Positions 1 through 39,338 of a DNA stretch of 39,338 nt are shown in pieces. The position numbers and the translations under genes are program-made. Under the pieces are notes generated by a model. That model ran no database searches. It had not been told where the DNA came from and worked only from the letters and a program-made list of their open reading frames with translations. This stretch comes from Alphaproteobacteria bacterium. Lineage in GTDB: Bacteria; Pseudomonadota; Alphaproteobacteria; JALCBB01. The stretch's first letter is position 1. Each line of letters begins with the position of its first letter. Where the stretch lies: assembly GCA_028066985.1 (NCBI GenBank), contig JALCBB010000004.1, positions 1-39,338 on the forward strand, given 5' to 3'.

Positions 1-100
1 TTTATTTTTTTGCGGGCTAGCCCGCACCCATCTGCTGGCATCGCTCGCTTGAGCCGGCATCGTGAATGTCTAAGTCAAACTCCCACTAATGCCAGAGGTC
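1..100 (+). repeat. Structured ~100-bp repeat arm (locus E1; any partner arm lies outside the window)
   Basis: T-run + GCGGGCTAGCCCGC hairpin + TCGCTTGAGC...GTGAATGTCTAAGTCAAACTCCCACTAATGCCAGAGG, shared with 14 other copies in the window. Confidence 0.9.
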
Positions 101-145
101 GTTCCATGGGAAGTTTAAAAAAATCGGCGCCGTCAAACAAAGCCC

Positions 146-3100
146 TCAGCCCAATGACTCCACGCGCGCCGCGCAATACTTAAACTCCGGAATCTTCCCG
201 TACGGATCCAACGCCGAATTCGTCAGCAAATTCACACTCGCCTCCGCAAAACAAAACGGCACAAAAATCACTCCCTCAGGAACCTGCCGATCCCCGCGCA
301 ACAGTATCTCTATACTCCCGCGCCGCGTCGCAATACGCACCCGATCGCCCGCCGCAAACCCCAAACCCTCCATCTCGCGCGGATTCAACATCGCGACCGC
401 CTCAGGCTCCAGATCATCCAAAACCCCCGAACGCCGCGTTATCGCCCCCGTATGCCAATGCTCCAGCAAGCGGCCCGTCGTCAAAACCATCGGATACTCA
501 ACATCCGGAACCTCCGCGGGCGCGACCAATTCCGTCGCCACAAAGCGTCCGCGGCCGCTCGCCGTCGGAAAACCCTCGCCGAACAATATCTCGCGTCCGG
601 CGCCCGCCTCCGAATCCGCCGGATAAGTCACCGAATCCTCGCGCTCCAATCGCTCCCACGAGATGTTCGCCAGCGACGGCATCAGTTCGCTCATCTCCGC
701 ATACACCTCGCGCGGATGCCCGTAATCCCACGACAAGCCCGTCCGCCGCGCCATCTCCTGAATCAGTTCCCAGTCCATGCGCGCCTCCCCCGGCGGACGC
801 AAAACCGCCCGCCCCATCTGTATCTGGCGATTCGTGTTCGTATAAGTGCCGACCTTCTCCGCATGCGCCGACGCCGGCAGCACCACATCCGCGAACCACG
901 CGGTCTCGGTCAGGAAGATGTCCTGCACCGCCAGATGCTCCAACTTCGCCAATGCCGCCCGCGCATGCGCCTGATCCGGATCCGACACCGCCGGATTTTC
1001 GCCCAGAATATACATCCCGCGCACCGCCCCCGCCAGAATCGCCTCCACCACCTCAACCACCGTCAGCCCCGGCGACGGACTCAACCCGACACCCCACGCC
1101 GACTCAAACACCGCGCGCACCGAGTCGTCCGCGACCGAACGATAGTCGGGATACACCATCGGTATCAGTCCGGCGTCGGACGCGCCCTGCACATTGTTCT
1201 GTCCGCGCAGCGGATGCAAGCCCGTGCCCGCGCGTCCGATCTGTCCGGTAGAAAGCGCCAGCGCTATCAGACAGCGCGCGTTGTCGGTGCCGTGAATGTG
1301 CTGGCTGATGCCCATCCCCCAGAAAATAATGGAGCGCTCCGAGCGCGCATACAGCCGCGCGACCTCGCGCAAAACCTCCGCCTTCACGCCGCATACCGAC
1401 TCCATCGCCTCGGGCGAAAAGTCGCGCAGCGCCTTTTTCAATTCCGCGAAGCCCTCGGTATGCGCCTGAATGTACTGCGCGTCGGTCAGACCCTCTTCCA
1501 CGATCACATGCAGCATCGCGTTCAACATCGCCACATCACTGCCGGGACGAAAGCGCAGATCATACGCCGCGTGACGCGACAACTCCGAACCGCGCGGGTC
1601 GGCAAGAATCAATTTCGCGCCGGCGCGCGCCGCCGCCTTCAGGTAGGTCGCCGCCACCGGATGATTCTGCGTCGGACGCGCCCCGATCACGAAGATGCAG
1701 TCCGACTCCAGCGCCGCGGTGAACGGCGCCGTCACCGCGCCCGAACCGATGCCCTCCATCAGCGCCGCCACCGACGACGCGTGGCACAGCCGCGTGCAGT
1801 GATCCACATTGTTGCTGCCGAAACCCTGGCGCACCAGTTTCTGGAAGAGATACGCCTCCTCGTTGCTCGCCTTCGCCGAGCCGAATCCAGCGAGGGCGTC
1901 GCCGCCGTGCTTGTCGCGGATGCGCGTCAGTCCGCGCGCGGCGAAGTCCAGGGCTTCGTCCCAGGAGGCTTCGCGGAAGTGCGTGAAGGGGTTGTCGGGG
2001 TCAATCTCCATGTCGGCGGACTTCTCGGCGTCCTCAAGGCGAATCAGCGGACGCCGCAGACGGTGCCGGTGATGCACATAGTCAAAGCCGAATCTTCCCT
2101 TGACGCAGAGACGATTTTCGTTCGCGGGGCCGTCGCGTCCGTCAACCTTGACGATTCGCTCAATGACATCGCCGTTGCCGTCATTGACGGGGACAACGAC
2201 ACCGCCGCCGTTTTTGTCGTCCTTGTTAGCGACGGAGACGACAACACCGCCATTGTCGTCATTGTTTTTGTCGCCACCTTTTTTGTCACCGTCACTGTCA
2301 CCGTCATTGACAGAGGGGACGACAACACCGCCGCCATTTTTGTCGTCCTTGTTAGTGACGGAGACGACAACGGCGGCGCCGTTTTTGTCCCCTTTATTTT
2401 TGTCACCGTCGCCGAGACCATTGACATTCGCCGTGTAGACGCGCGTCTGACATCCCACGCCGCAATACGGACACAGCGTATCCACGCTGCGCTCGGGCGT
2501 GAGGGCGCGGCGTCCGTCTTCGGCGGAGACCAGCCGCGACTCCATCAGCGCGCCCGTCGGACACGCCTGCACACACTCGCCGCACGCCACACAACTGCTC
2601 TCGCCCATCGCGTCGCCAAGATCAAAAATGACGCGCGAGCCGCGTCCGCGTCCCGCCATGCCGATGACATCGTTCACCTGCACCTCGCGGCAGGCGCGCA
2701 CGCAGAGTCCGCAGTTGATGCAGGCGCCGAGTTGCACGGTCATCGCGGTGTGCGAGCGGTCGGCGGCGATCTCGCCGTGCGACGGGAAACGGCTCGTCGT
2801 CACGCCGACGCCTTCAGCCTGACGCCAGAAAACTCCGTCGGGGTCGGGCGACATCTCGCGCGCCGGCTGATCCGCGACCAGCAGTTCAAACACAAGTTCG
2901 CGGCTGCGGCGCGCGCGCTCGTCGCCGAGACGGACTTCCATTCCCGCCGTCGGACGCCGAATGCACGACGCCGCCAGCACGCGCTCGCCCTTGATCTCAA
3001 CCATGCATGTCCGGCAGTTGCCGTCGGCGCGGTAGCCGCTCTCGCCGCTGTGACAGAGGTGCGGGATTTCAACGCCGTGACGCCGCGCGGTTTCCCATAT

Positions 3101-3187
3101 TGTTTCGTTCGCGCGCGCCGTGACGGGCTTGCCGTCTATGGTGAACGGGATCTCCTCGGCGGGCGCGGGTTTTGTGCGACTGGACAT
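146..3187 (-). CDS. fdhF: Formate dehydrogenase alpha subunit (Mo/W-bis-MGD, Cys ligand, N-terminal Fe-S domains) with ~87-aa low-complexity insertion
   Basis: IPHLC...CRTCMV 2Fe-2S domain; CINCGLCVRAC and CVACGECVQACP 4Fe-4S motifs; CPYCGVGC...LCVKG; NVDHCTRLCHASS; LRGQNNVQG; C-terminal LTTGRLLEHWHTG and KIPEFK. Start moved from 3298 to the ATG at 3187 (MSSRTK), just before the first recognisable domain. Confidence 0.92.
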   Translation of the reverse strand: MSSRTKPAPAEEIPFTIDGKPVTARANETIWETARRHGVEIPHLCHSGESGYRADGNCRTCMVEIKGERVLAASCIRRPTAGMEVRLGDERARRSRELVFELLVADQPAREMSPDPDGVFWRQAEGVGVTTSRFPSHGEIAADRSHTAMTVQLGACINCGLCVRACREVQVNDVIGMAGRGRGSRVIFDLGDAMGESSCVACGECVQACPTGALMESRLVSAEDGRRALTPERSVDTLCPYCGVGCQTRVYTANVNGLGDGDKNKGDKNGAAVVVSVTNKDDKNGGGVVVPSVNDGDSDGDKKGGDKNNDDNGGVVVSVANKDDKNGGGVVVPVNDGNGDVIERIVKVDGRDGPANENRLCVKGRFGFDYVHHRHRLRRPLIRLEDAEKSADMEIDPDNPFTHFREASWDEALDFAARGLTRIRDKHGGDALAGFGSAKASNEEAYLFQKLVRQGFGSNNVDHCTRLCHASSVAALMEGIGSGAVTAPFTAALESDCIFVIGARPTQNHPVAATYLKAAARAGAKLILADPRGSELSRHAAYDLRFRPGSDVAMLNAMLHVIVEEGLTDAQYIQAHTEGFAELKKALRDFSPEAMESVCGVKAEVLREVARLYARSERSIIFWGMGISQHIHGTDNARCLIALALSTGQIGRAGTGLHPLRGQNNVQGASDAGLIPMVYPDYRSVADDSVRAVFESAWGVGLSPSPGLTVVEVVEAILAGAVRGMYILGENPAVSDPDQAHARAALAKLEHLAVQDIFLTETAWFADVVLPASAHAEKVGTYTNTNRQIQMGRAVLRPPGEARMDWELIQEMARRTGLSWDYGHPREVYAEMSELMPSLANISWERLEREDSVTYPADSEAGAGREILFGEGFPTASGRGRFVATELVAPAEVPDVEYPMVLTTGRLLEHWHTGAITRRSGVLDDLEPEAVAMLNPREMEGLGFAAGDRVRIATRRGSIEILLRGDRQVPEGVIFVPFCFAEASVNLLTNSALDPYGKIPEFKYCAARVESLG

Positions 3188-3270
3188 TGCTTCGCAGTGT
3201 ATACCTCTATGCCTCTTCGGGCAAGAATTCTGAAATTCGGCTGTATACGGCGATTTCGGGGCGGCTTTTT

Positions 3271-3303
3271 TCTTATTGCAAATGACTTTCATTAGCAATA
3301 AGA
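3271..3303. promoter_or_regulatory. Fur-box-like palindromic operator
   Basis: TCTTATTGC-A-AATGA-CTT-TCATT-A-GCAATAAGA is a near-perfect 33-bp dyad with an AATGA-N3-TCATT core, upstream of an iron-binding protein gene. Confidence 0.7.
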
Positions 3304-3346
3304 TAGGGAGGTGGAGGATAACGGGCTATTTGCAGGAGCGGGAACC

Positions 3347-4663
3347 GTGACTATGACAAGTCAAATTTTAATTTTTTGCGGGCAGCGCCCGCAGGCATCA
3401 GTTGGCGCGGTTCGCTTGAGCCGGCGCCGTGAATGTCTGAGTCAAACTCCCACTAATGCCGGAGGCTTGCTCTTCGGAACTTTTCGGAGTGCGACCTCTG
3501 GCATTAGTGGGCGCGGACTCCAGACTAGCCGCGACAGCGGCTCAAGCGAACTGTACCCGCAGACGGCTGGCGGCACTGCCGCCAAATTAAAATTGTTTCT
3601 CTCTTTAATTAAGAGACGAACGACCATCACGGCGTCCGTCGGGGGCAGGCTTATTAAGTCTGTCGCCGTCGCCGGTCTCGCCGTTCTTGTTCTCGGCGTA
3701 AATACCGCCCGGGCGCAGACCCTCAACATCTACACCGGCAGACACTACCCCGCCGACCAGATGCTCTACGATCTCTTCCAGTCTCAGACCGGCATCACCG
3801 TCAACGCGCTTGAAGGCAAGACCGGCGCCCTTCTCGAAAGGCTCCGCCTGGAAGGCGACGAAAGTCCCGCCGACCTCTTCATCACCGTTGACGCCGGCAA
3901 TCTCTGGCGCGCGCGAAATCTTGACCTGCTCGCGCCGGTCGTGTCCGATGTTCTTGACGCGAGGATTCCGCCGCATCTTCGCAGTCCTGAGAATCTCTGG
4001 TTCGGATTCGCGACGCGCAGCCGCATCGCGTTTTACAATCCGCGGGTTCTCGCCGCGCCGCCGCGCCGATGGAGCGACCTCGCCCTTCCCGAATACAGGG
4101 AGCAGATCTGCGCGCGGAGTTCGTCCAACATTTACAATCTGTCGCTGCTCGCCTCGTTCATAGAGCGCGACGGCGAAGACGCCGCCGCGCGCTGGGCGCA
4201 GGGCGTCGTCGCGAACTTCGCGCGTCCGCCGGCGGGCGGCGACACCGACCAGTTGCGCGCCGCCGCCGAGGGCATCTGCGGAGTCGCGATCGCCAATCAC
4301 TATTATTACGCGCGGCTGCTGGCGTCCGAAAGCGCGGCGGACAACGATGTCGCGGCGGCGCTGGTGCCGCTCTGGCTCGGCGAGGAGGGCGACGGCGTGC
4401 ATGCCAACATTTCCGGCGGCGCGCTGCTGCGGTCGGCGAAGAATCGGGAGGAGGCGGTGGCTTTTCTGGAATTTCTGGCGAGCGACCGGGCGCAGGAGAT
4501 TTTTGCGGAGGCGAACAACGAGTATCCTGTTGTTGCCGGTGTCGCGCTTTCGCCGGTTCTTGATGTTCTCGGGCTTCATCGGACGGAGGAGGTCAATGTT
4601 TCGGTTTACGGACGCAATCAGGCTTTGGCGCAGCGCATTTACGACCGCGCCGGCTGGCAATGA
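3347..4663 (+). CDS. futA: Fe(III) ABC transporter substrate-binding protein (FutA/FbpA family); start uncertain, 5' part runs through a repeat element
   Basis: LNIYTGRHY, SPADLFITVDAGNL, RSSSNIYNLSL, GGDTDQ, ANHYY and NNEYP motifs; signal-peptide-like LIKSVAVAGLAVLVLGVNTARA. AGGAG at 3334-3338 precedes GTG 3347 (alternatives GTG 3311, ATG 3353). Confidence 0.85.
   Translation: MTMTSQILIFCGQRPQASVGAVRLSRRRECLSQTPTNAGGLLFGTFRSATSGISGRGLQTSRDSGSSELYPQTAGGTAAKLKLFLSLIKRRTTITASVGGRLIKSVAVAGLAVLVLGVNTARAQTLNIYTGRHYPADQMLYDLFQSQTGITVNALEGKTGALLERLRLEGDESPADLFITVDAGNLWRARNLDLLAPVVSDVLDARIPPHLRSPENLWFGFATRSRIAFYNPRVLAAPPRRWSDLALPEYREQICARSSSNIYNLSLLASFIERDGEDAAARWAQGVVANFARPPAGGDTDQLRAAAEGICGVAIANHYYYARLLASESAADNDVAAALVPLWLGEEGDGVHANISGGALLRSAKNREEAVAFLEFLASDRAQEIFAEANNEYPVVAGVALSPVLDVLGLHRTEEVNVSVYGRNQALAQRIYDRAGWQ
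3363..3636. repeat. Composite repeat E2: two converging arms around a ~30-bp linker, plus a TTAATTAA-containing flank
   Basis: Arm + at ~3370-3466 and arm - at ~3497-3590; linker and flank match the reverse complement of parts of 33992-34170. Confidence 0.88.
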
Positions 4664-5028
4664 AGCGGCGAACCGCCTCCGGCATCAGGCGACGAACGGC
4701 CTCCGGCATTAGCGGGAGTTTGACTAAGACATTCACGATAGCCGCTCAAGCGAACCGCACCCGCAGATGGCTGGCGGCACTGCCGCCAAAAAAATTAAAA
4801 AATAATGAGAAAACAATTTATTTAATTGACACCATTAATTGTCTATTAATAATTAACAGAATAAATTATTTTGACCCCTTAAACAGTCCAATTGCTTTTT
4901 AATTTATTTTTTTGCAGGCAGCGCCTGCGGGCATCAGTTGGTACGGTTCGCTTGAGCGGCTATTGTGAATGTCTTAGTCAAACTCCCACTAATGCCAGAG
5001 GCCGTGCTTCGATTGTCCCTAAATTAAT
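4664..5028. repeat. Composite repeat E3: diverging arms around an AT-rich core
   Basis: Arm - at ~4698-4800, AT core ~4800-4905, arm + at ~4905-5003; short partial duplication CGAACNGCCTCCGGCAT at the left end; lies between convergent genes. Confidence 0.9.
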
Positions 5029-5033
5029 TGTTT

Positions 5034-6251
5034 TTAATTTTCCGCCGGCCGCAACCGCGCAAGAGGACGCTCGTCTATCGGCAGATGCAGCACCGTCGCC
5101 AGCACCCCGAACGCCACCGCCGCCAGCCACATCCCGTCATACGAACCCGTCCGATCATACAGATAACCGCCCAGCCACACGCCCGAAAAACTTCCCAGCT
5201 GATGACTGAAAAACACAAACCCGAACAGCGTCGCCATATACCTCACGCCGAACACCTGCAGCACTATCCCCGATGTCAGCGGCACCGTCGACAGCCACAG
5301 CAAACCCATCACGCCCGCGAACATCAGCACCACCGGCTCCGTCTTCGGCAACACCAGCAGCGCCACTATCGCCAGAGTCCGCGCGAAATAAATGAAACTC
5401 AACCCCAGACGCTTGCTGAAATACTGTCCCGCAACCCCCGCGCCGAACGAGCCGATGATGTTAAACAGTCCGATCAGCGACAGCGACCACGCCCCGATAG
5501 ACGCGCCCATTCCCAGATCCTGCAGATACGCCGGAAAATGCACCGTGATAAACGCGACATGAAAACCGCACACGAAAAATCCGAGCGTCAGCAGCACATA
5601 ACCGCGATGCGCGCGCGCCTCCAATAACGCCGAGCGCAGACTCTGCCCCGTGTCCTCGTCCGCGGCGGTCGGATCGCTCGCGGGCAGCGCGAACACCAGA
5701 ACCACGATCAGCAGCACCGACGCCGCCAGTCCGTAGAGTCCCGCCGTCCAGCCGTAGTTCGCTATCAGCGCCTGTCCGAACGGCGAGAACAGCACCTGTC
5801 CGAGCGAGCCCGACGCCATTCCGAGGCCGAGCGCGAACGAACGGCGCTCCGGCGATATGACTTTGACGATAGCGCTCAGCGCAATTGAGAACGACGCGAA
5901 TCCTATTCCGATTCCTGTCAGGATTCCCGCCGTGAAGGTCAGGACGAAGCCGTCCTGCGCCTGTGACATTCCGACGAGTCCGATCGCGTAGATCAGTCCG
6001 CCGATCGCGAGTATTCGCGACGGGCCGTAGCGATCCGAGAGCGCGCTTGCGACCGGCACTGTCGCGCCCCAGAGCAGGTTCTGAGTCGCGAGGGCGAATG
6101 CGAAGGTTTCGCGTCCCCAGCCGCGTGTCGCGGTCATCGGCTCCAGGAAGAGGCCGAGCACCGAGCGCGGACCGAAGCCCAGGAACGATATCAGGCAGCT
6201 CGCCGTGATGACGACAAGCGGTGTGCGCCAGGCGCGGATTGCTGTAGTCAT
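5034..6251 (-). CDS. MFS transporter
   Basis: 405 aa with about 12 hydrophobic segments; SALSDRYGPSR motif-A-like loop; GGYLYDRTGSYD near the C-terminus. Confidence 0.88.
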   Translation of the reverse strand: MTTAIRAWRTPLVVITASCLISFLGFGPRSVLGLFLEPMTATRGWGRETFAFALATQNLLWGATVPVASALSDRYGPSRILAIGGLIYAIGLVGMSQAQDGFVLTFTAGILTGIGIGFASFSIALSAIVKVISPERRSFALGLGMASGSLGQVLFSPFGQALIANYGWTAGLYGLAASVLLIVVLVFALPASDPTAADEDTGQSLRSALLEARAHRGYVLLTLGFFVCGFHVAFITVHFPAYLQDLGMGASIGAWSLSLIGLFNIIGSFGAGVAGQYFSKRLGLSFIYFARTLAIVALLVLPKTEPVVLMFAGVMGLLWLSTVPLTSGIVLQVFGVRYMATLFGFVFFSHQLGSFSGVWLGGYLYDRTGSYDGMWLAAVAFGVLATVLHLPIDERPLARLRPAEN

Positions 6252-6289
6252 GCCGTTAGTTTTACCAGACCGGCCGCGCCTCGTCCAGA

Positions 6290-6597
6290 TTAATTACAGA
6301 GACAATCGAAGTGCGATCTTTGGCATTAGCGGGCGTTTGACTCAGACATTCACGACAGCCGCTCAAGCGAACCGCACCCGCAGATGGCTGGCGGCACTGC
6401 CGCCAAAAAAATTAAATTAAAAAGAAAATAATTTATTTAATTTGACTCCTTAAACAGTCCAATTGCTTTTTAATTTATTTTTTGCAGGCAGCGCCTGCGG
6501 GCATCAGTTGGCGCTGTTCGCTTGAGCCGACACCGTGAATGTCTTAGTCAAACTCCCACTAATGCCAGAGGCTGTTCTTCGTCTGTCTCCTGATTAA
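6290..6597. repeat. Composite repeat E4: diverging arms around a short AT core
   Basis: Ends TTAATTACAGAGACAATCGAAG... and ...CTTCGTCTGTCTCCTGATTAA; core CCTTAAACAGTCCAATTGCTTTTTAATTTATTTTTTTGC identical to E3. Confidence 0.9.
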
Positions 6598-6603
6598 AGG
6601 CTC

Positions 6604-7962: not shown

Positions 7963-8017
7963 TCAATGCGGACTCCGTTCAAGATGCGCGAAAAACACGG
8001 TGCTATACTAGCGAAAA

Positions 8018-10063: not shown

Positions 10064-10164
10064 TCGCGGTGACGGCGCCGCGTTTTGCGGGAGGCGCGGG
10101 CAGGGGTGCTGGAATTCAACTTTAGGTTGTATTGCCTGAATTGATCTGTCGCGGAGGCGGGGGG

Positions 10165-14993: not shown

Positions 14994-15114
14994 CGGCAGA
15001 ACGGGGGGTTAAAGAAACAACCCGATAATCATAGAGATACTTCCGCCAGACCGCAAGCGCCGAAATTCGGCGCATTTCCGCCATCTCCGGACAGAAAACC
15101 TTGCCTTTTTGACC

Positions 15115-15371: not shown

Positions 15372-15392
15372 GTGAAACAAAATCAGCGCCCC

Positions 15393-25341: not shown

Positions 25342-25514
25342 CGCCTCAAAGTTCCTCTCTCGTTCCCATGACCCGAATCGCCATGAACTCCCGACACCCT
25401 ACACCAGTTTTTCAGAAAAAACACCCCCCCGAAAAGGCGGCGCCGTCAATGCCTCCCCTGAGCCAAAATACGCCCCGACTACACAAAAAAAGCCGGCGCG
25501 CCTACAATCTCCAC

Positions 25515-27070: not shown

Positions 27071-27471
27071 ATTAATTAAGGCGACAAACGAAGAACGATC
27101 TTCGGCATTAGTGGGAGTTTGACTTAGACATTCACGATAGCCGCTCAAGCGAACCGCACCAACTAATGCCCGCAGGCGCCGCCTGCAAAAAAAATTAAAT
27201 TAAAAAGAAAATAATTTATTTAATTAACCCCATTAATTGTCTATTAATAATTAACAGAACAAATCTCTTTTTAACACATTAATTGTCTATTATTAATTAA
27301 TGAAAAACAATTTATTTTAATTGACCCCTTAAATGGTCTAATTGATTTTTAATTTATTTTTTTGCGGGCTAGCCCGCACCCGTTAGTTGGCGCGGTTCGC
27401 TTGAGCCAACACTGTGAATGTCTTAGTCCCACGCCCACTAATGCCAAAGAGCGCACTTCGTGGTCTCTTAA
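27071..27471. repeat. Composite repeat E5: diverging arms around an extended AT core
   Basis: Arm - ~27100-27200, core with ATTAATTGTCTATTA duplicated, arm + ~27352-27450; both ends finish in TTAA. Confidence 0.9.
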
Positions 27472-30400: not shown

Positions 30401-32954
30401 CCGGCGTCCGCATCAGCGCGTTGGCGATGGAATCCAGACTCGCCGGAAAACGCGTCTGCAGAAGATAACGGCCGAAGGCGCGCAGAATCGCCGCCTCCTG
30501 TGGCGACAGGCCGGCGCGCAGAACCAGGCCGTTCATGCGGTCGTCTTCAATGCGTCCTGTGAGGACGCCGACAAAGCACTCCGCCAGCGCCTCGCGGATG
30601 TGCGCCGGCGGCGGCGGCGAGTCTCCGAGCAGCAGCGAAAAGTCGTAGAGCCAGATGCGGTGGCCGCCCGTCGTGCGGAACGAAAATGTATGCTCCTCGC
30701 GCACGCGGAACCCCATGCGCTCAAGCACCGGCAGCGTGTCCGAGAGCGAAAGTTGATCGCCCGGATGCAGACAGCGAAACGCCAGACGCGCCTCGCCCGA
30801 AGGAACATCGCCGGGCGCGTCATACGCCCGCTCCCCCGGAGACGCGCGCGCGCTCACATGATCGCCGAACCACTCCAGCCGCGCGCGCAGTTCCGCCTCT
30901 TCGGCGACCTGATCCAGCCACGCCAGATCCGCCGACGCCTGAATCGGCGCGTAGCGGTCGGCGTATTCGTCGGAGATGCTGCCGCCCCATCGGCGCAGCA
31001 CCGCCGCCGCGCGCTCCTCGCCGAGGCGTTCTATCAGACGCCGCGCCAGACGCTCGCGCCACGAACGCAGACGCTCGTCAATCTCGCGCGTCAGTCGCTG
31101 CAGCGAAATCTGCCGCCGCGCGCCGATGAAGAGTCCGTGAACGCGGACGAGCGAACTTTCGTCGTGAACGGCGCGGAGGGCGTGCGGCTTCGCGTCCAGG
31201 GCGCGCGCGACATAGCGGCGGATTTCTTCCAGCGCCGCCTCGCTCACATTGAGACGCGGCAGGCAGAGCGTCACATACCAGAGTTGCTCGGTCGTCTCGT
31301 GATGCGCGAAGACCCGCGTGCCGGGCTGTTCCTGAAGGCTTTCTATCGCGACCGCGAGTTCCGCCGTGTGCGGGGCGGGAAGGTGAAACAATTCGTCGCG
31401 CGGCCAGGTGTTGAGGATATGCCGCAGCGCCTTGCCGCTGTGCGACGACTCCGAGAGGCCGGCGCGTCCGGTGATTTCCACGAGTTTGCGGCGCAGGATC
31501 GGAATCTCGCCGATGTCTATGAAATACACATTGGAGGTGAAGAGTCCGACGAACATCGCGAAGACCGGCTTCTGTCCGCGCGCGGCGGGAAGGCGCACGA
31601 CCACGAGGTCCATCGGCGCGTCCAGATGAACGCGCGAGCGCATGCTGGATTTCCAGATCACCAGACGGCCGGGCGGCTCGTGGCGCGTCTTCGGCAGATT
31701 TTCGCGGCGACGGAAAATGCCGAGCGCCCGGCTCTGACTGCGGCGGCGCTCGGTGCCGGTCAGCGCGCCGAGGAATGTGAAGTGATCGTCGGCGAGCCAG
31801 CGCAGGAACTCGGCTTCTTCGGCGCGTTTTTCGCTTCGTGAGGACGAGGCGTCGGCGGCGAGGATGTCGGCGATTTCGCGGCAGCGGCGGCGCATCGCGC
31901 GCCAGTCGGCGACGGCGAGGTTGAGGTCGGCGTAGGTTGAGCGCATCTCGGCGTGAATCTCCGCCATTCGTTCCACCGCGCTCGGCGAGAGTTCTATCAG
32001 CACGACGGATTCGCTTTTGCGTCCGCGTGTTTCGGCTGTTGTGCCGGTCTCGCCGGCCGCGTCGGCTCTGGAGCCGGGGACGAGGTGCGTGAGGCGTCCG
32101 CCGGAGTCGCGGACGACGGAGACGACCGGATGCAGCACGAGGCGCGTCTCAACGCCGAGACGATTCAGCGCCGCGAGGGTGCTGTCGACGAGGAACGGCT
32201 TGTCGTCGTGAATCGTCAGCAGAAACGGACGCGCCGCCGACATCGGGTCGGATGACGGCGCGTGAAAGACTTCAAGAATCTCGCGTCCGCCCGCGCGTCT
32301 TCGCAGACGGCGGAAACTGTGCGCCGCCGCCGCCGCGAGCGCGGCCGGATCGCGCGCGCGCAGGGCTTCGTCGGTTGTGGTGGCGAAGAGGGCGGGCAGG
32401 TAGCGCGCCGCGAGCGCGAGTTCTTTTTTGTCGGACGCGTCGCCGAGGTCAATGCCGCCCGCCTGTCCGGCGAGTGCGAAGAGGGTCTGCGTCGGCTTGC
32501 CGCGCGGCGCGCGCAGGTAGCCGAGGCTTTCGGCGCTCAGGCGGTCGCGCACGCTGCCGGCTTTTGCCTGTCTCTTCGCTCCCGCCTTTGGCGCCGCCGC
32601 CGTTGTCGCCGCCTTTTTTGTCACCTTTTTGGTCGACGGGGACGATGAAGCCGCCCGCCTCGCCGCCCGTTTTTTTGTCGCCGCCGTTTTTGTCCCCGGG
32701 GACGACGAGGCTGCGCGTCCTCTCGCCTTTTTTGTCGCCTGCTTCGCGGACGCCGTTTTTGTCGCCCGCTTCACTGACACCTTTTTGGTCGACGGGGACG
32801 ATGAGGCTGTCCGTCTCCTTGTCCGGCTTTTTTTCGGCGCCGTTTTTGTCGCCCGCTTCGCGGACGCCTTCTTTGTCACCTTTTTGGTCGACGGGGACGA
32901 TGAGGACACCCGCCCTCTCGCCTGTTTTTTTGTCGTGCGTGTCTTTCGCGCCAT
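27468..32954 (-). CDS. gdhB: Large NAD-specific glutamate dehydrogenase with K/A/T-rich N-terminal extension and an internal T/S/E insertion
   Basis: DKPFLVDS, GVHLRFGRIARGGLRWSDR, VKNAVIVPAGAKGGF, DPYFVVAADKGTA, DAFASGGS, GVGDMSGDVFGNG, EGANLG, DNSAGVDCSDHEVNIKI; GGAGAGG RBS. Confidence 0.93.
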   Translation of the reverse strand: MARKTRTTKKQARGRVSSSSPSTKKVTKKASAKRATKTAPKKSRTRRRTASSSPSTKKVSVKRATKTASAKQATKKARGRAASSSPGTKTAATKKRAARRAASSSPSTKKVTKKAATTAAAPKAGAKRQAKAGSVRDRLSAESLGYLRAPRGKPTQTLFALAGQAGGIDLGDASDKKELALAARYLPALFATTTDEALRARDPAALAAAAAHSFRRLRRRAGGREILEVFHAPSSDPMSAARPFLLTIHDDKPFLVDSTLAALNRLGVETRLVLHPVVSVVRDSGGRLTHLVPGSRADAAGETGTTAETRGRKSESVVLIELSPSAVERMAEIHAEMRSTYADLNLAVADWRAMRRRCREIADILAADASSSRSEKRAEEAEFLRWLADDHFTFLGALTGTERRRSQSRALGIFRRRENLPKTRHEPPGRLVIWKSSMRSRVHLDAPMDLVVVRLPAARGQKPVFAMFVGLFTSNVYFIDIGEIPILRRKLVEITGRAGLSESSHSGKALRHILNTWPRDELFHLPAPHTAELAVAIESLQEQPGTRVFAHHETTEQLWYVTLCLPRLNVSEAALEEIRRYVARALDAKPHALRAVHDESSLVRVHGLFIGARRQISLQRLTREIDERLRSWRERLARRLIERLGEERAAAVLRRWGGSISDEYADRYAPIQASADLAWLDQVAEEAELRARLEWFGDHVSARASPGERAYDAPGDVPSGEARLAFRCLHPGDQLSLSDTLPVLERMGFRVREEHTFSFRTTGGHRIWLYDFSLLLGDSPPPPAHIREALAECFVGVLTGRIEDDRMNGLVLRAGLSPQEAAILRAFGRYLLQTRFPASLDSIANALMRTPAAARMLVSLFETRLRPDAGETETATVTETETETVTTSAPSSSSALMSSSAKVTETVTAGASSSPLMSPSSSATVTATVTATAKERKRRGAAIETQIEKTLEAVSDAAQDRILRALLEVVRAIVRSNYWRAGADSRSGEVVSFKLEPRRLEFLPRPRPLAEIFVSAPDFDGVHLRFGRIARGGLRWSDRPDDFRDEILGLAKAQEVKNAVIVPAGAKGGFALRRPPAERAALATAGEDAYRRFITALLEVTDNRDAAGALLRPEGVVCLDAPDPYFVVAADKGTANFSDIANGVAAAHDFWLRDAFASGGSAGYNHKEMGITARGAWESVRRHFRELGRDADTAPLTVTGVGDMSGDVFGNGLLLSRSLRLVAAFNHRWIFLDPNPDPSVQFAERRRLFRGGLDWNHFDTAKLSRGGGVHARSEKQIRLSEAAARRLGVDAGEMPPADIMRAILRAEADLLWFGGIGTYVRGSHESDAALSDHANDAIRVRGREVRALVVAEGANLGVTQAGRVEYATCGGHINTDFIDNSAGVDCSDHEVNIKILLAGAESRGELSRAARDRLLGSMETDVAAHVLRHNFLQVQSLSVMEGLSVALSDRLRHVIRHLERHHELDRRLSGLPEAEEFEDRNRRGLGLTRPELSVLLAHTKNALYDDLIGSDLLEDSFLESELLAYFPGVLSRRYSAEILRHPLRREITAMLLANGVGNRMGVAFVSEIGERTGSESEAVVRAWIMTLALFSIPRLWRLAEAMDFDPRRPDEAVLVEAARLCELATAWFLRNGADGAIGVQVARYRGDVEALAEMGADLLEGDSLARFAGRVERFTELGIVGSLAREVAFLPFLSSACGISDLAQRFGLPVAEVAGLFFGVGEYFGYDWLRSAAGKVPRLTLWDKLAVQSLLEDADFHQAALTMRILSQGGRRGLEPEATIGRWVSRHRREYERAHELLSELRVDANPRLSMLLLANRHLKLLSGLPEN
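32575..32945 (-). repeat. Degenerate coding repeats (SSSPSTKK / ATKTA units) in the gdhB 5' end
   Basis: TTTTTGGTCGACGGGGACGATGA x3 (~32626, ~32782, ~32881) plus a variant; repeated TTTTTGTCGCC. Confidence 0.8.
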
Positions 32955-33939: not shown

Positions 33940-34338
33940 AAACAATTTTAACTTTGCGGACAACGGCCGCAGGTTCAACCACGATTTAATTGACACCGTG
34001 GCGGTCGTCTGTCCCTTAATTAAAGAGAAAGACAATTTTAATTTTTTGCGGGCAGCGCCCGCAGGCATCAGTTGGCGCAGTTCGCTTGAGCCAACACTGT
34101 GAATGTCTAAGTCAAACTCCCACTAATGCCAGAGACCGCACTTCGAAAAGTCCCGTAGAACAAACCTCTGGCATTAGTGAGCGCTGAATTCAGACTCTTA
34201 AAGCAGTCGCTCAAGCGAACAACACCCACTTAAGCCCGCGGGCGCTGCCCGCCTCAAGCGAACAACACCCACTTAAGCCCGCGGGCGCTGCCCGCCTCAA
34301 GCGAACAACACCCACTTAAGCCCGCGGGCGCTGCCCGC
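33940..34338. repeat. Composite repeat E6: degenerate stub, converging arms and triplicated half-arm
   Basis: Stub AACAATTTTAACTTTGCGGACAACGGCCGCAGG at ~33941; arm + ~34038-34135; arm - ~34165-34252; linker and flank homologous to E2 inverted. Confidence 0.85.
34210..34338. repeat. Perfect 43-bp tandem repeat x3
   Basis: CTCAAGCGAACAACACCCACTTAAGCCCGCGGGCGCTGCCCGC at 34210, 34253 and 34296. Confidence 0.95.
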
Positions 34339-34346
34339 CGCCACTG

Positions 34347-34418
34347 AGCGGGCGAAGGGATTCGAACCCTCGACCCCAACCTTGGCAAGGTTGTGCTCTA
34401 CCCCTGAGCTACGCCCGC
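34347..34418 (-). tRNA. tRNA-Gly (GCC)
   Basis: GCGGGCGTAGCTCAGGGGTAGAGCACAACCTTGCCAAGGTTGGGGTCGAGGGTTCGAATCCCTTCGCCCGCT forms a canonical cloverleaf with anticodon GCC; followed by CAG, not CCA; TGGTATAGT -10-like box upstream. Confidence 0.96.
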
Positions 34419-34440: not shown

Positions 34441-35724
34441 CTACGGACACACAGGCAACTCCGACGAACCATGCCGCCGCGCCACCGAAAACTCCACCAC
34501 CCCGCCCAGCAAAGCGAACCCCCCCGCCAGCAGAAACAACCCCTCGTATCCCCCCAGCGTGACCAGCAGCCACACATAAAACGCCGACCCCGCCGCCTGA
34601 AACAAACCGAACAAAAACGACGCCCGCGCCCACACCCGCCGGCTCAACACCTCGTCGCCTCCGAGCAAAGCGCGAAGCCGCGCCGCCAGCACTCCGACCT
34701 GCGCGAAATTAAACACCCCGATGCAGAACGACATCACGCCCAGCACCCACACATTAACACTCGCTATCGGAACCAGCAGCGTCACCCCCAGCGCCAGCAA
34801 AGCCACGCGATACGAAAAACCGCGGCCGAACCTGTCGGCGAAGCGTCCGAAACAGAGAGAGCCGAAAATCGCGCCCGCTCCCATCATCTGCCAGTACAAT
34901 CCGCCCGTCGACATCCCGTAACCGAGTTCGCGCACCACAAAATCAATAAACAGCACCTGCGGCATCGCCAGACTCAGCGAACTCAGCGAATACGAAATAT
35001 AACTCCCGACAACCAGACGATGAACCGCCGAATCCACGGACGAATCCGCCGACACCGTTTCTGCCGCCGTCATTGTCGCCGTTGTCGCCGTCATTGCCGG
35101 CGCCGTTTCTGCCGCCGTTCGCGCCGGCGCTGTCGTCACCGTCGCCGTTTCCGTCTGCGAAGACTCGCGGGTGTCGTCGCTCCACGCGGCCCAGGTCAGT
35201 CCCGTCAGCGCCAGACATGTCACGCCCAGACCAAGCCACACCGTCGTCAGACTCAATTCCGACAACAGCGGCACCAGCAGCCCCGACAAAATCAGACCGC
35301 CGCCCATTCCCGAAACCAGGATGCCGCCGATCAGCGCATGATGCGGCGGCGGCGTGCGCGACTGCACATTGAGCATCGCCAGGACCAGCACCACTCCCGA
35401 GGTCATGCCGCCGGCGAAGAGAAAAAACGCGAACCACGCGAACTCGCCGGGACGCGAACACGCGAAAAAACTCAGCGCCGCCACGCACAAAGACGCGCGT
35501 ATCGCCGCTCCGGACGGCACGCGGAACCACGAGAACGACGCCAGCAGCGCGCCGGCGAGGTATCCGAAGAGGTTGCCGACGCCGAGGGTGTAGGTTTGCG
35601 TTTCGGAGAACCATCCTGCCTCTATGGCGAGCGGAATGAGGGTGGCGAAACTGAAGCGCGCCAGTCCCATCGTCACGAGGAGCGCGCAGAAGCCCGAGAA
35701 CACTATGTAGATCGTGCGTGCCAT
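34441..35724 (-). CDS. YbfB/YjiJ-family MFS transporter with T/A-rich central insertion
   Basis: MGLARFSFATLIP, NLFGYLAGAL, GRFADRFGRG; about 12 TM segments; start set at ATG 35724 (the longer ORF is a read-through shadow). Confidence 0.85.
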   Translation of the reverse strand: MARTIYIVFSGFCALLVTMGLARFSFATLIPLAIEAGWFSETQTYTLGVGNLFGYLAGALLASFSWFRVPSGAAIRASLCVAALSFFACSRPGEFAWFAFFLFAGGMTSGVVLVLAMLNVQSRTPPPHHALIGGILVSGMGGGLILSGLLVPLLSELSLTTVWLGLGVTCLALTGLTWAAWSDDTRESSQTETATVTTAPARTAAETAPAMTATTATMTAAETVSADSSVDSAVHRLVVGSYISYSLSSLSLAMPQVLFIDFVVRELGYGMSTGGLYWQMMGAGAIFGSLCFGRFADRFGRGFSYRVALLALGVTLLVPIASVNVWVLGVMSFCIGVFNFAQVGVLAARLRALLGGDEVLSRRVWARASFLFGLFQAAGSAFYVWLLVTLGGYEGLFLLAGGFALLGGVVEFSVARRHGSSELPVCP

Positions 35725-36351: not shown

Positions 36352-36777
36352 GAATGAGACAGGCGAAGCGCGGCCTTTGGCATTAGTGGGCGTTTGACTA
36401 AGACATTCACAATAGCCGCTCAAGCGAGCGATGCCAGCAGACAGGTGCGGGCTAGCCCGCAAAAAAATTAAAAATAAAAAGAAAATAATTTATTTAATTG
36501 ACCCCCTAAATAGTCCATTTAATCTTTAATTTATTTTTTTGCAGGCAGCGCCTGCAGGCATCAGTTGGTGCTGTTCGCTTGAGCCAACATCGTGAATGTC
36601 TTAGTCAAACGCCCACTAATGCCAAAATTCGCACTTCGTCTGTCCATTAATTGTCAATTAATTTCTATTTAATTTTTTGCGGGCGACGCCCGCAGGCATC
36701 AGTTGGCGCAGTTCGCTTGAGCGGCTGTCGTGGCTAGTCTGAATTTAACTCCCACTAATGCCAGAGGCTGGTTCTTA
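36352..36777. repeat. Composite repeat E7: three arms (-, +, +)
   Basis: Arms at ~36375-36470 (-), ~36530-36625 (+) and ~36670-36768 (+) with AT-rich linkers; lies between convergent genes. Confidence 0.9.
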
Positions 36778-37608
36778 ATTAGTTTCATCAAGGTCGACAA
36801 CTATCGGAGCATGATCACTCGGGCCCTTCCAGCCGCGCACACGCGACACCGTGTCCGTCCCGACAACATGCGGCGCCAGGCCGGGCGAACCCAGCGCGTA
36901 ATCCAGTCGCCACCCCCGCCCCGCCCCGAACGCGCCAGGATGCCGGTACGTCCACCAGCTGAAATGAAACTCCGCCGCCGGCACCCGCTCGCGCTCCAGA
37001 TCCGTCCAGCCGCCCGCGCGCACCATCCGCCCGAAACTCTCCCGCTCCAGATCCGTATGCCCGACACTCCGCCACGCCGTCTCGTGATTCCAGACATCCG
37101 TCTCCAGCCACGCCACATTCAGATCGCCGACCAGCAGCCGCGGAGTTTCCGCGTCCAGGGTGCGCGACCAGCGCGTCATCGCCGACAGAAAACGCAGTTT
37201 GTCGTCATACTTCGGATTTCGCTCCCGACTCGCGACACCGCCGCCCGACGGAACATAAAAACAATGCAACTCCACCTCGCGTCCGCCCGGCGCGATCTCC
37301 ACTGCCGCTGACAAGTGCCGCTTATCCTCTTTGCCGCGCCAGCGCCGCACAGGACGCGCCTCGAGACGCCGCCGCGACAAAATCGCGACGCCGTTATATC
37401 CGCCCTGTCCGAGCACGATCTGATGCTCGTATCCCCATCGCCGGAAGGCGTCGCGCGGAAAGAAGTCGTCCGCGACTTTCGTCTCCTGCAGACACAGCAC
37501 ATCCGGACGCAAAACCCGCGCCAGCCGTCCGACCTGCGAAAGCCGCCGCCGCACCGAATTCACATTCCACGACATCACCCGAAGTCCCGGAGAATTTTCA
37601 GACACCAT
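36775..37608 (-). CDS. xth: Exodeoxyribonuclease III
   Basis: SWNVNSVR, DVLCLQETK, GYNGVAILS, YVPSG, GDLNVA, FSWWTYR, GWRLDY, PSDHAP. Confidence 0.95.
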   Translation of the reverse strand: MVSENSPGLRVMSWNVNSVRRRLSQVGRLARVLRPDVLCLQETKVADDFFPRDAFRRWGYEHQIVLGQGGYNGVAILSRRRLEARPVRRWRGKEDKRHLSAAVEIAPGGREVELHCFYVPSGGGVASRERNPKYDDKLRFLSAMTRWSRTLDAETPRLLVGDLNVAWLETDVWNHETAWRSVGHTDLERESFGRMVRAGGWTDLERERVPAAEFHFSWWTYRHPGAFGAGRGWRLDYALGSPGLAPHVVGTDTVSRVRGWKGPSDHAPIVVDLDETN

Positions 37609-38850: not shown

Positions 38851-38870
38851 GCGCTGGTGTTTGTCGGGGT

Positions 38871-39215
38871 ATGGGGGTGCCCGAGCATCTCAGCGCGCAG
38901 CAGCGCCGGCGGCGGAGGCGCCGGCGGCGGCAGGTCGCGTGGGGCGCTTTGCTCGGGGTTTTATTTTTTTATTTGCTGCTGACGCTGGTTCAGGGCCGGC
39001 ATCGTTTACAGGAGCAGCGGCTGCTGGAGCTGCGAGTCGAGCGGCTTGAGGGCGAGTTGGGGGAGTTGCGTGATCGGCGCGAGGTTCTGGAGCGGCGCGC
39101 GGGTTTATTGCGCGCGGAGTCTCTGGATGCGGATTTGCTTGACGAGGGCGCGTTGCGGGAGCTTGGTTTTGTCCGGCCTGAGGATCTGCTGATTGTGCTG
39201 CCTGAGGACGAGTAA
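38871..39215 (+). CDS. ftsB: Septum formation initiator (FtsB/DivIC-like)
   Basis: Basic N-terminus, one TM, G-x-x coiled coil, LDADLLDE...ELGFVRPED. Confidence 0.75.
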   Translation: MGVPEHLSAQQRRRRRRRRRQVAWGALLGVLFFYLLLTLVQGRHRLQEQRLLELRVERLEGELGELRDRREVLERRAGLLRAESLDADLLDEGALRELGFVRPEDLLIVLPEDE

Positions 39216-39218
39216 CTA

Positions 39219-39338
39219 TTAATGGAGACAGACGAAGTGCGGCCTTTGGCATTAGTGGGCGTTAAATTCAGACTAGCCACGACAGCGGCTCAAGCGAGCG
39301 ATGCCAACTAATGCCCGCAGGCGCTGCCTGCAAAAAAA
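39219..39338 (-). repeat. Repeat arm E8 (runs to the window edge)
   Basis: TTAATGGAGACAGACGAAGTGCGGCCTTTGGCATTAGTGGG...GCAGGCGCTGCCTGCAAAAAAA. Confidence 0.9.

Follow-up and report, generated by a model that had tools for sequence, protein, structure and literature searches.

Approximately 7% of the small (2.01 Mb) genome of this sponge-associated bacterium consists of a single non-coding palindromic repeat family, whose members lie mostly at the 3' ends of genes and vary as mosaics of one another. Our preferred interpretation, which we hold to be moderately probable, is that these are lineage-restricted, intergenic mosaic repeats of the BIME/MITE kind that act at the DNA level and that, after an ancient amplification, came to form a recombining population.

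The initial annotation of the window (the whole stretch of DNA analyzed, 39,338 nucleotides) had counted 15 repeat arms at eight loci. A two-part pattern taken from the arm consensus matched the window exactly 15 times, always at those eight loci, and had no match in each of 100 shuffles (0 expected). Genome-wide, nhmmer identified 1087 arm matches on 197 of the 199 contigs, showing that the family is not limited to its own contig; these matches formed 638 loci with a total of 140,650 bp. Many of the loci (350 of 638) were at contig ends, and 338 of the 398 contig ends lay inside an arm. Of 669 copies compared, 667 were distinct in sequence, with a median pairwise identity of 76%. The family had not been recognized in the initial annotation, and we likewise found no match to it in Rfam, plasmids, phages or the 190 other genomes searched (0 of 40 relatives and 0 of 150 genomes of the class), from which it appears to be lineage-restricted.

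As the assembly is fragmented into 199 contigs ending in the repeat, we considered whether the repeats might be an assembly or binning artifact, or be confined to one contig. We give this explanation practically no credence. Arm copies sat between ordinary housekeeping genes on almost every contig and almost all were distinct, and in four sequencing runs from three studies, a diverged strain included, element loci had a summed contig depth as much as several hundred times greater than unique DNA. The repeat is not an artifact, because contigs from runs of three studies show this very high depth at its loci, and the breadth of its distribution over the contigs also refutes the single-contig reading.

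Anatomy of the arms and of the composite element

The arm is approximately 120 nt long and comprises an AT-rich leader with a terminal T-run, a perfectly paired GC hairpin of 14–15 nt with a 6-bp stem, a body of ~85 nt and a tail that often ends GTCTC-TTAATTAA. The termini were heterogeneous, however, as only 369 of 877 arms had the GTCTC-TTAA tail. The consensus of 927 genomic copies agreed with the one proposed initially from the window alone. REPs carry a conserved 5' tetranucleotide, GTAG, and its reported absence from the family was borne out by that consensus, in which the hairpin is directly preceded by the T-run, as it is in nearly all copies.

The hairpin stem was Watson–Crick paired in 3987 of 4014 cells (99.3%) and existed in five co-varying types, without a G-T versus A-C bias. 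By contrast, a 12-bp stem (GGCATCAGTTGG/CCCACTAATGCC) was not maintained (5732 of 8028 cells Watson–Crick), and compensation was absent for its alternative 5' modules. The earlier description of the arms as structured therefore holds for the GC hairpin and not for the longer stem.

In the canonical element, two arms are placed head to head around one to four AT-rich units of ~45 nt each. Among 287 internal loci there were 81 diverging pairs ("-+"), 47 loci of the form "-++" or "--+", 102 single arms and eight converging pairs ("+-"), and the head-to-head and tail-to-tail joints differed. The canonical element couples two arms of different hairpin type, a feature that was new here: 92 of 139 diverging pairs joined type A to type T, compared with three A-A and eight T-T pairs. 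The composite arms formed inverted repeats of 100–134 nt that were 71–90% complementary, and the composite ends read TTAATTAAGAGAC...GTCTCTTAATTAA. Core lengths clustered at ~76–83, 118–131 and 165–177 nt, with the core units oriented toward the T arm in 68 composites, toward the A arm in 22 and mixed in two. Only eight of 90 internal solo arms had a matching inverted 5' leader.

The arms of the window, whose coordinates are those of nhmmer placement, and its cores, which were read from the sequence, are as follows (the first arm was also read and aligned):

2..116 (+): arm, hairpin type T (GCGGGCTAGCCCGC), truncated where the contig begins
3364..3486 (+): arm, hairpin type G, left half of a converging pair
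3473..3594 (-): variant arm, hairpin type C (GGCGGCAGTGCCGCC), GTGGCTAGTCT-type body, right half of the converging pair
4681..4801 (-): arm, hairpin type C, left arm of a diverging composite
4802..4899 (no strand): AT-rich core, with an A-run, repeat units with a TTGAC motif and a T-run
4900..5023 (+): arm, hairpin type A (GCAGGCAGCGCCTGC), right arm of the composite
6295..6418 (-): arm, hairpin type C, left arm of a diverging composite
6419..6470 (no strand): short AT-rich core, one unit
6471..6593 (+): arm, hairpin type A, right arm
27077..27198 (-): arm, hairpin type A, left arm
27199..27349 (no strand): AT-rich core, about three units
27350..27464 (+): arm, hairpin type T, right arm
34035..34157 (+): arm, hairpin type G, left half of a converging pair
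34143..34252 (-): variant arm, hairpin type G, right half of the converging pair
34253..34338 (-): two more copies, both perfect and 43 nt long, of the arm segment next to the hairpin (nhmmer, as partial copies)
36355..36473 (-): arm, hairpin type T, left arm of a diverging composite
36474..36526 (no strand): short AT-rich core, one unit
36527..36648 (+): arm, hairpin type A, right arm of the composite
36666..36782 (+): third arm, in tandem, hairpin type G (GCGGGCGACGCCCGC)
39221..39337 (-): arm, hairpin type A, at the contig end

Both of the architectures initially described were found, with diverging pairs around an AT-rich core at 4681–5023, 6295–6593, 27077–27464 and 36355–36648 and converging pairs at 3364–3594 and 34035–34252, as was the three-arm locus (36355–36782). 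In the converging pair at 3364–3594 the arm tails overlap in a linker of roughly 35 nt. The second converging pair has a tail-like module plus TTAATTAA upstream of its left arm (33985–34030) and three tandem 43-nt copies at 34210–34338, two of which (34253–34338) were outside the earlier arm count. As a separate observation, the core at 4802..4899 contains the sole strong sigma-70-like match of the first 20 kb (4826–4853).

Position relative to genes and folding of the arms

The position of the elements was determined relative to 1488 genes predicted by a home-made codon-usage caller that probably under-calls. Elements were present in 87 of the 193 gaps between convergent genes, in 150 of the 844 between tandem genes and in 45 of the 252 between divergent genes, and only eight of the 288 loci flanked on both sides or enclosed by called genes fell inside a called gene. 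Among 521 gene-adjacent arms, 381 (73%) faced a gene 3' end and 140 a gene start, and in 183 of the 381 the stop codon was 20–40 nt from TAATGCC. The stop was TAA in 165 of the 252 genes with an abutting arm versus 289 of the 1229 without, and 193 genes (~13% of called genes) ended inside the terminal TTAATTAA motif, with a T preceding the stop in 70%. Together, these data indicated that most elements sit at the 3' end of a gene and abut its stop codon with their tail, the stop often being in the terminal motif; both the 3'-end bias and the placement of the stop are additions to the initial annotation.

The window illustrates these arrangements. The tail of the arm at 4681..4801 (-) comes after the stop of a solute-binding protein gene (ORF 3311–4663, +, translation taken from 3656), and an MFS gene (5034–6251, -) has its stop 11 nt past the arm at 4900..5023 and its start facing the arm at 6295..6418 (-). 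The arm at 6471..6593 (+) is followed by the stop of a Pyr_redox gene (6604–7962, -), and the stops of an EVE-domain gene (26648–27055, +) and a DivIC-like gene (38871–39215, +) precede the arms at 27077..27198 and 39221..39337, respectively. The tail of the arm at 36666..36782 reaches into the stop of an Exo_endo_phos gene (36775–37608, -), the arm at 36355..36473 (-) overlaps the start of an MFS_4 gene as called by longest ORF, and the 43-nt copies at 34253..34338 abut the 3' end of tRNA-Gly(GCC) (34346–34418, -). The glutamate dehydrogenase gene (27468–32954, -) has its TAA stop within the terminal GTCTCTTAA motif of the arm at 27350..27464, and this stop is within ~2 residues of the position in a 58%-identical orthologue, where the arm is absent downstream.

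RNAalifold analysis of 339 diverse arms predicted the hairpin alone on either strand, and the arm body folded with z-scores of -0.36 (top strand) and -1.12 (bottom strand). Folding was slightly better for the bottom strand (sense for the abutting gene) in 200 of 300 arms, and this strand had 729 wobble-compatible cells versus 264 on the top strand, which hints at some selection at the RNA level. Folding of the composite at 6290–6600 gave one long single-stranded DNA hairpin (-87.2 kcal/mol, z -11.4). At gathering score, the tRNA was the only match to Rfam 15 in the window, and permissive filters applied to 3300–6700 returned only sub-threshold matches, far below threshold for plant miRNA hairpins (e.g., MIR841, 43 bits versus 200). 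Intrinsic terminators were rejected as an identity for the arms based on their geometry, in which one strand has the T-run 5' of the hairpin and the other has an A-run 3' of it; the 23 terminator-like sites in 1–20000 were at chance level (21.3 expected) and none was within an arm. The arm is unlikely to be an RNA gene because the 14–15 nt hairpin is the only part conserved as structure. No ORF was found inside the elements, and the family is non-coding and protein-less and probably acts at the DNA level.

Mosaic variation and the origin of the copies

The initial annotation had noted that arm sub-segments are shuffled between copies, and this was borne out quantitatively. In a linkage analysis of 49 columns with a minor allele of at least 10%, r2 fell from 0.23 at 1–3 nt to 0.006 beyond 40 nt, 747 of the 750 pairs of sites separated by more than 20 nt showed all four gametes, and blocks were nearly independent (Cramer's V 0.07–0.21). 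Alleles at a frequency below 2% summed to only 0.4–0.6% per column, and no subfamily structure was found among the copies. The two arms of a composite were no more alike than random arms (0.749 versus 0.750), whereas tandem neighbor arms were (0.806, p 9e-8). Linkage equilibrium past ~20 nt and the scarcity of private mutations, neither of them previously described, fit short-patch recombination and not a recent burst of transposition, and overall the variation looks like recombination among old copies. Alternatively, equilibrium and few rare alleles could come from very old copies at mutation-selection balance, each functionally constrained, in which case they would speak for a host function instead of conversion.

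Searches for a source of mobility were negative. No transposase was found among eight families searched in the assembly, which is 95% complete and breaks at repeats such that a multicopy transposase could stay unassembled. Domains Y1_Tnp, DDE_3, DDE_Tnp_1, rve, IS110 and TnpB-type had no genome matches; for Y1_Tnp (PF01797, RAYT) the threshold was E<=0.01, at which six of 14 control genomes were positive. There was no multicopy transposase-like protein family in the genome and, as the initial annotation had stated, no transposase among the 20 main ORFs of the window. A transposase flanked by copies, which that annotation had suggested looking for, did not turn up among 12 ORFs sampled in 19 intervals that lie between hairpins facing inward. 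The 17 composites with TTAATTAAGAGAC at both ends had no direct repeat outside the terminal TTAA/TTAATTAA, where a TTAA/TA duplication is inseparable from the inverted repeat itself, and neither of two candidate nested insertions was a true one. At four loci examined in four runs, every contig broke at the element borders and none bridged them, hence no empty site was found; contigs of a diverged strain (hundreds versus ~40 base differences listed) stopped at the same borders. A genome of the same taxonomic family was too rearranged at the one locus compared, downstream of the glutamate dehydrogenase gene. The proposed analogy with BIMEs, REPINs and MITEs stands with respect to anatomy, abundance, intergenic position and lack of coding capacity, but its "mobile or amplifying" part gained no transposase, direct repeat beyond TTAA, nested insertion or empty site.

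Under our preferred interpretation, an enzyme now missing from the assembly would have amplified the family long ago, probably at TTAA- or TAA-containing sites, which at a genomic GC content of 60% would largely be stop codons or sites within existing elements. From that time on, the copies, numbering over 1000, would have formed a single recombining population: gene conversion or template switching would swap patches of ~10–20 nt among dispersed copies, cores would invert between inverted arms, and arms would duplicate locally in tandem; the three processes combined would yield the mosaic.

An active or recently active MITE, with the composite or a single arm moved in trans by a TA/TTAA-specific DDE transposase, is in our judgment unlikely. 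The source of the transposase would be an IS copy that was lost recently, varies between strains or is missing from the assembly, and the mosaic would reflect frequent insertion of copies beside, or within, the AT-rich ends of older ones. The long inverted arms and their terminal sequences, very high copy number, lineage restriction, side-by-side clustering of arms and enrichment of TAA/TTAA stops at element ends all agree with this, as does the definition of MITEs by TIRs, target duplications and an absent transposase gene in PMC3184786. Against it are the negative domain, protein-family and bracketed-interval searches, the lack of nested insertions, the borders shared with the diverged strain, and variation that, having no subfamilies and few private mutations, is unlike that of a burst. 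A REP/REPIN-type single-stranded DNA element, cut beside the GC hairpin by a RAYT-like HUH enzyme with the T-run in the role of the 5' tetranucleotide, we regard as highly improbable. The T-run adjoining a perfectly paired hairpin, the alternating orientations with distinct head-to-head and tail-to-tail linkers as in BIMEs, and the pairing of two hairpin types, as the two REP types of BIMEs pair up, are in its favor; however, Y1_Tnp was absent from a genome searched alongside positive controls, the hairpin is only ~12% of a conserved 120-nt arm, and no gene has the inverted hairpin flanks of RAYT genes.

Selection by the host, with each copy kept as a cis element of mRNA 3' ends, seems to us very unlikely. 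Read-through would make the bottom strand of the arm, or the whole composite, as a long imperfect hairpin, which would either shield the 3' end against exonucleases or be an RNase III substrate, as has been reported for REP and Correia elements. The 3'-end bias, a convergent-gap occupancy 2.5 times that of other gaps, the folding and wobble biases toward the bottom strand, the strong composite fold, the few rare alleles (which fit purifying selection), and the mRNA-stability effects and convergent-gene bias of REP/BIME on record in PMC3184786 are consistent with such a role. Yet the arm body is hardly more structured than shuffles, the 12-bp stem lacks compensation, partner arms are no more complementary than random arms, the geometry is unlike that of a terminator, more than a quarter of the arms next to genes point at a gene start, 45 divergent gaps hold an element, and composites are oriented at random relative to transcription (13:12). 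More speculatively, and we consider this distinctly unlikely, the elements may be a maintained genome-wide punctuation system rather than decaying transposon relics, with >1000 copies kept uniform and re-assorted in ~10–20 nt patches by a putative dedicated recombination activity, and with the host ending about one gene in eight with them, by means of the stop codon together with structure at the 3' end. Such an activity would recognize the conserved hairpin, the T-run and the two hairpin types. If this speculation is correct, a multicopy DNA family of a bacterium would be evolving in the manner of a freely recombining population, and would do so without a known mobility enzyme.

Comparison with known repeat systems

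Rickettsia palindromic elements (RPEs) are palindromic repeats of which some copies lie inside genes. The family resembles them as a lineage-specific palindromic repeat in the small genome of a host-associated alphaproteobacterium with a few copies within called genes, but most of its copies are composites located between genes, in which two arm types are paired around an AT-rich core.

As in BIMEs, two unit types pair, here A with T in most diverging pairs. Based on the properties of REPs and BIMEs given in PMC3184786, the family is also similar to the BIMEs and REPINs of gamma- and betaproteobacteria in having hundreds of intergenic copies around a GC-rich hairpin, and to BIMEs in its alternating unit orientation, differing head-to-head and tail-to-tail linkers, bias to convergent gene ends and lack of coding capacity. 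It differs in that its arms are ~120 nt long compared with units of ~35 nt, the hairpin is preceded by a T-run instead of the 5' tetranucleotide, a RAYT gene is absent from the genome, the core is built of ~45-nt units that are nearly all A+T, and the termini carry TTAATTAA and hold stop codons; none of the sequences searched was similar to it.

By description, the composite also resembles bacterial MITEs, among them Correia of Neisseria and Nezha of cyanobacteria: it is a non-coding palindrome of 270–400 bp whose inverted arms are long and whose ends are AT-rich and contain TA, it exists in many copies, it folds into a long stem-loop, and it has no internal transposase. MITEs are taken here as defined in PMC3184786. 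In contrast to MITEs, the family has heterogeneous termini, no cognate IS found and a target duplication inseparable from the terminal TTAA, and its copies are free mosaics in linkage equilibrium rather than subfamilies around master copies.

Arms and composites in the window and across the genome

A two-part pattern derived from the arm consensus matched exactly 15 times in the window and had no match in any of 100 shuffles, in agreement with the 15 arms at eight loci reported in the initial annotation. An nhmmer profile built on these 15 arms placed them within a few bases of their original positions and added two partial 43-nt arm copies at 34253-34338, adjoining tRNA-Gly(GCC). The region 34210-34338 contains three perfect tandem 43-nt copies of the hairpin-proximal arm segment, which sit 7 nt past the 3' end of the tRNA gene (34346-34418). 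Both pair architectures and the three-arm locus described from the sequence were recovered as well: four head-to-head (diverging) pairs with an AT-rich core, two tail-to-tail (converging) pairs with overlapping tails, and one locus with a third, tandem arm. The window's 20 main ORFs comprise ordinary housekeeping genes and two type III restriction-modification systems (ResIII helicase and N6_N4_Mtase, 10165-14993 and 19229-25341), and there was no transposase among them, as the initial annotation had stated.

The genome assembly comprises 2.01 Mb in 199 contigs, is 95% complete and includes the window as one entire contig (C71). At a cut-off of E<1e-3 the profile identified 1087 arm matches on 197 of the 199 contigs, which ruled out the possibility that the copies were confined to one contig. 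These matches form 638 loci and occupy 140,650 bp, or about 7% of the genome. Most contig ends (338 of 398) had an arm no further than 150 bp away, indicating that this repeat is where the assembly breaks. Loci set more than 300 bp in from a contig end numbered 287; they included 81 diverging pairs, 47 diverging pairs accompanied by an additional arm, 102 single arms and 8 converging pairs. The window region was also found in 12 DNA runs from three studies, labelled as sponge metagenome or as a coded organism. In the four runs compared, the summed contig depth at element loci was up to several hundred times that of unique DNA. Together with the genome-wide matches, this depth indicates that the arm family is real and extends beyond one contig.

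The arm consensus, from 927 copies, consists of an AT-rich leader, a T-run, a hairpin whose stem is 6 bp long, a body of about 85 nt and a tail. The body has two invariant blocks, TCGCTTGAGC and CACTAATGCC, followed by a purine-rich stretch and CTTCG. The minimal 5' border of the arm is TTTTAATTTTTT and then the hairpin; at the 3' end the tail has the form CTTCG-TCTGTCTC-TTAATTAA in 369 of 877 arms, the remainder continuing into longer linker modules, the next arm or directly into unique DNA. A long-bodied variant on another contig (C80:15690-15945) has the usual leader, hairpin and CGCTAATGCC end, but its interior holds about 150 nt of unrelated sequence, which also occurs in the tails of other arms.

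The hairpin stem was Watson-Crick paired in 3987 of 4014 cells, with five co-varying types (T, 357; A, 286; G, 111; C, 29; S, 15). There was no G-T versus A-C asymmetry in the stem, which fits a DNA-level palindrome. A longer, 12-bp stem is not maintained among the copies: about 45% of them have alternative 5' modules that are uncompensated. RNAalifold, applied to 339 diverse arms, predicted the hairpin alone on either strand, and arm bodies folded barely better than shuffles (z -0.36 for the top strand and -1.12 for the bottom strand). The Rfam comparison called for at the outset gave no family for the arms: at gathering scores the tRNA was the sole match in the window, and under permissive filters the arms gave only plant miRNA hairpin matches far below threshold. 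Based on the restriction of conserved structure to the hairpin, the weak fold scores and the lack of an Rfam match, an RNA gene or riboswitch-like leader was rejected. A whole composite does form a single long hairpin when folded (-87.2 kcal/mol, z -11.4) because its arms are inverted; partner arms were no more similar to each other than random arms (0.749 vs 0.750).

The pairing of arm types in composites was strongly biased. Of 139 diverging pairs, 92 were A-T, 3 were A-A and 8 were T-T, while type frequencies lead to an estimate of about 32% A-T pairs under independence; the four diverging pairs in the window were all heterotypic. Core lengths clustered near 76–83, 118–131 and 165–177 nt, corresponding to one to three units of about 45 nt. 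The units pointed toward the T arm in 68 composites, toward the A arm in 22 and were mixed in 2, indicating that a canonical orientation exists and that about a quarter of the cores are inverted.

An inverted copy of the tail motif was present upstream of 8 of 90 solo arms, and both ends carried the motif in one, so the inverted termini belong to the composite rather than to the arm. The same counts led us to reject the idea that a solo arm is a small MITE bearing inverted ends of its own. In 17 clean-ended composites nothing was duplicated beyond TTAA/TTAATTAA. No arm was split by another arm, and two candidate nested insertions that might have served as internal empty sites proved to be a run of N and a long-bodied variant arm. 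Other small repeats occur near the arms. One family, D17 (AAAACGCGGCGgGGTCAATG...), is present in the window at 15118-15162, 15346-15390 and 25432-25476, and its motif often directly adjoins arms on other contigs. An 18-nt palindrome, ATGTTTCGCGCGAAACAT, recurs at one or both flanks of solo arms, sometimes in arrays (e.g., contigs C7, C41 and C87), and could represent a third repeat or a site where a protein binds.

Position of elements relative to genes

All gene-position figures here carry the caveat that they depend on a home-made codon-usage caller, which called 1488 genes. Occupancy by elements was 45% for convergent gaps (87 of 193) and 18% for both tandem (150 of 844) and divergent gaps (45 of 252), and eight element loci lay inside genes. 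Arms lying within 150 nt of a gene numbered 521; they faced its 3' end in 381 cases and its start in 140. For 183 of the 3'-facing arms, the stop codon lay 20–40 nt from TAATGCC, a position within the terminal motif. The stop was TAA in 165 of 252 genes with an abutting arm versus 289 of 1229 others. In total, 193 genes (about 13% of those called) ended within the terminal motif, and a T preceded the stop in 70%. An example is the glutamate dehydrogenase gene, whose TAA stop lies within the arm's GTCTCTTAA and whose product ends within about two residues of the end of its 58%-identical orthologue in the same-family genome G001, where no arm lies downstream. The 170-bp gap 3' of the G001 gene contains a short array of GACAA.. 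units that repeat about every 12 nt (G001 region L027, 4225-4340).

The elements showed no preferred orientation with respect to transcription (composites, 13:12; core units, 14:11). Core units of the TTGAC type resemble -35 boxes, and there was one good sigma-70 match at 4826-4853. However, arms preceded by promoter-like units faced a gene start in only 33 of 152 cases, which argues against a promoter role, as does the random direction of the units. A terminator role was rejected since the T-run lies 5' of the hairpin, the wrong geometry; terminator-like sites in 1-20000 were at chance level and none was within an arm.

Low-complexity tracts with a GTC/GAC period are found in the window at 2129-2434, 16892-16975, 30120-30383, 32555-32954 and 35048-35159. 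They lie in frame within housekeeping genes (a formate-dehydrogenase-like gene, glutamate dehydrogenase and an MFS gene) and are read in differing frames to give D/G/N/K-rich, T/E/V/A-rich or S/K/T-rich peptides. The genome as a whole has 114 of these tracts, which occur in several frames and senses. A link between arms and these coding tracts was rejected, with 3.5% of tracts within 100 bp of an arm versus 12.3% of random positions. One contig of a diverged strain (described below) omits 32617-32871, indicating that tract length varies between strains.

Together, these data describe one repeat family that accounts for roughly 7% of the 2-Mb genome of this symbiont and contains the stop codons of roughly one in every eight genes. 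The family thereby influences how genes end, how well the genome assembles and probably how it rearranges, in a sponge-associated bacterium that is very abundant.

Variation among copies and between strains

Full arm copies had a median pairwise identity of 76%, and 667 of 669 were unique. Alleles rarer than 2% summed to only 0.4–0.6% per column, and the minor allele reached at least 10% in 49 columns. Linkage between sites decayed rapidly, with a mean r2 of 0.23 at 1–3 nt, 0.13 at 4–10 nt, 0.056 at 11–20 nt, 0.012 at 21–40 nt and 0.006 beyond, and for sites separated by more than 20 nt, 747 of 750 pairs showed all four allele combinations. Sites were strongly associated within about five local blocks (the hairpin and its 3' neighbors, 36–47, 58–61, 63–82 and 83–87), and these were nearly independent of one another (Cramer's V 0.07–0.21). 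The earlier impression that arm sub-segments are shuffled between copies was therefore borne out. Tandem neighbor arms were more similar to each other than random arms (0.806, p 9e-8), whereas arms 1–20 kb apart on one contig were not (0.751).

A recent transposition burst predicts subfamilies, long-range linkage and mostly private mutations, and the data were the opposite on each. The simplest reading is that copies exchange short patches, by ectopic gene conversion or template switching, that the cores of elements invert and that arms duplicate locally. An alternative is that the copies are very old and each is at mutation-selection balance, which would imply a host function. Overall, the evidence favors recombination among copies as the principal process still at work. 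Near-complete linkage equilibrium across more than 600 distinct copies gives unusually clean support for the view that dispersed bacterial repeats can evolve as a recombining population, in contrast to lineages descending from master copies. Long reads from the three sampled populations would allow direct measurement of how fast ectopic conversion proceeds in a wild symbiont and how long its tracts are.

Two runs of the third study carried hundreds of listed differences from the window, versus about 40 in the others. Contigs of this diverged strain end at the same element borders (27117-27123, 27432-27467, 34058-34061, 34373-34388, 36393-36394, 36711-36741 and 39253), so the four loci compared are probably occupied there too. 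No contig bridging an element and no empty site was found in the four runs examined. The summed depth of 19400-25384 was about 2–10 times below that of neighboring DNA in the two diverged-strain runs and level in the other two; the second type III system may be strain-variable. A toxin-antitoxin-like HTH_17 and PIN_3 gene pair is present in three copies (C100:5078-5883, C43:12573-13402 and C74:5071-5873) that are 72–84% identical and each have arms nearby. Its use as a paralogous empty site was abandoned, as the homology was too complex to read.

Mobility genes and relation to known repeat systems

Searches of the 95%-complete, repeat-broken assembly for Y1_Tnp, DDE_3, DDE_Tnp_1, rve, the TnpB-type domain and the IS110 DEDD domain gave no matches, and reverse transcriptase (RVT_1, PF00078) was likewise not found; some control genomes were positive in each enzyme-family search. 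A retroposon with an A-tail was rejected based on the PF00078 result. The genome has two tyrosine recombinase genes of the Phage_integrase family, which we presume to be XerC and XerD. An all-against-all comparison of called proteins gave 20 small families, and 11 sampled family proteins were transporters, glycosyltransferases, Sel1, PIN, a methylase and the like. Intervals of 450–5000 bp bracketed by arms had hairpin ends inward, the layout expected for an autonomous copy, in 19 cases versus tails inward in 229. Twelve ORFs tested from the 19 intervals included no transposase; three had no Pfam family and one had a weak PD-(D/E)XK match. The lack of a transposase in an assembly of this completeness, broken at repeats, is not proof.

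The arm was not identified by BLAST in 40 relatives, including the only same-family genome, by blastn against plasmids and phages, or outside its own genome by a covariance model run against 150 genomes across the class. Pattern scans of two public collections, both of which may exclude near relatives, gave at least four single matches in genome_contigs and none in metagenome_contigs. Two of the matches listed were in Psychrobacter, within an apparent coding signal-peptide region, and are considered chance matches. The arm family and its sequence strings were not found in the portions consulted of the literature on sponge symbionts and MITEs, where supplementary repeat annotations could exist.

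These findings identify the arm family as a new, very abundant BIME/MITE-like mosaic repeat. That part of the initial annotation is upheld; the suggestion of mobility is not upheld for the present day, and the evidence from the copies points to recombination. REP/RAYT systems are defined by a 5' motif and a RAYT gene; in contrast, the arms have no REP-type 5' motif, which separates them from REPs by definition, and the genome has no RAYT gene. The heterotypic A/T pairing in a transposase-free genome reopens the long-standing problem of how mosaics of the BIME type spread and are maintained, here in a BIME-like system outside the gammaproteobacteria.
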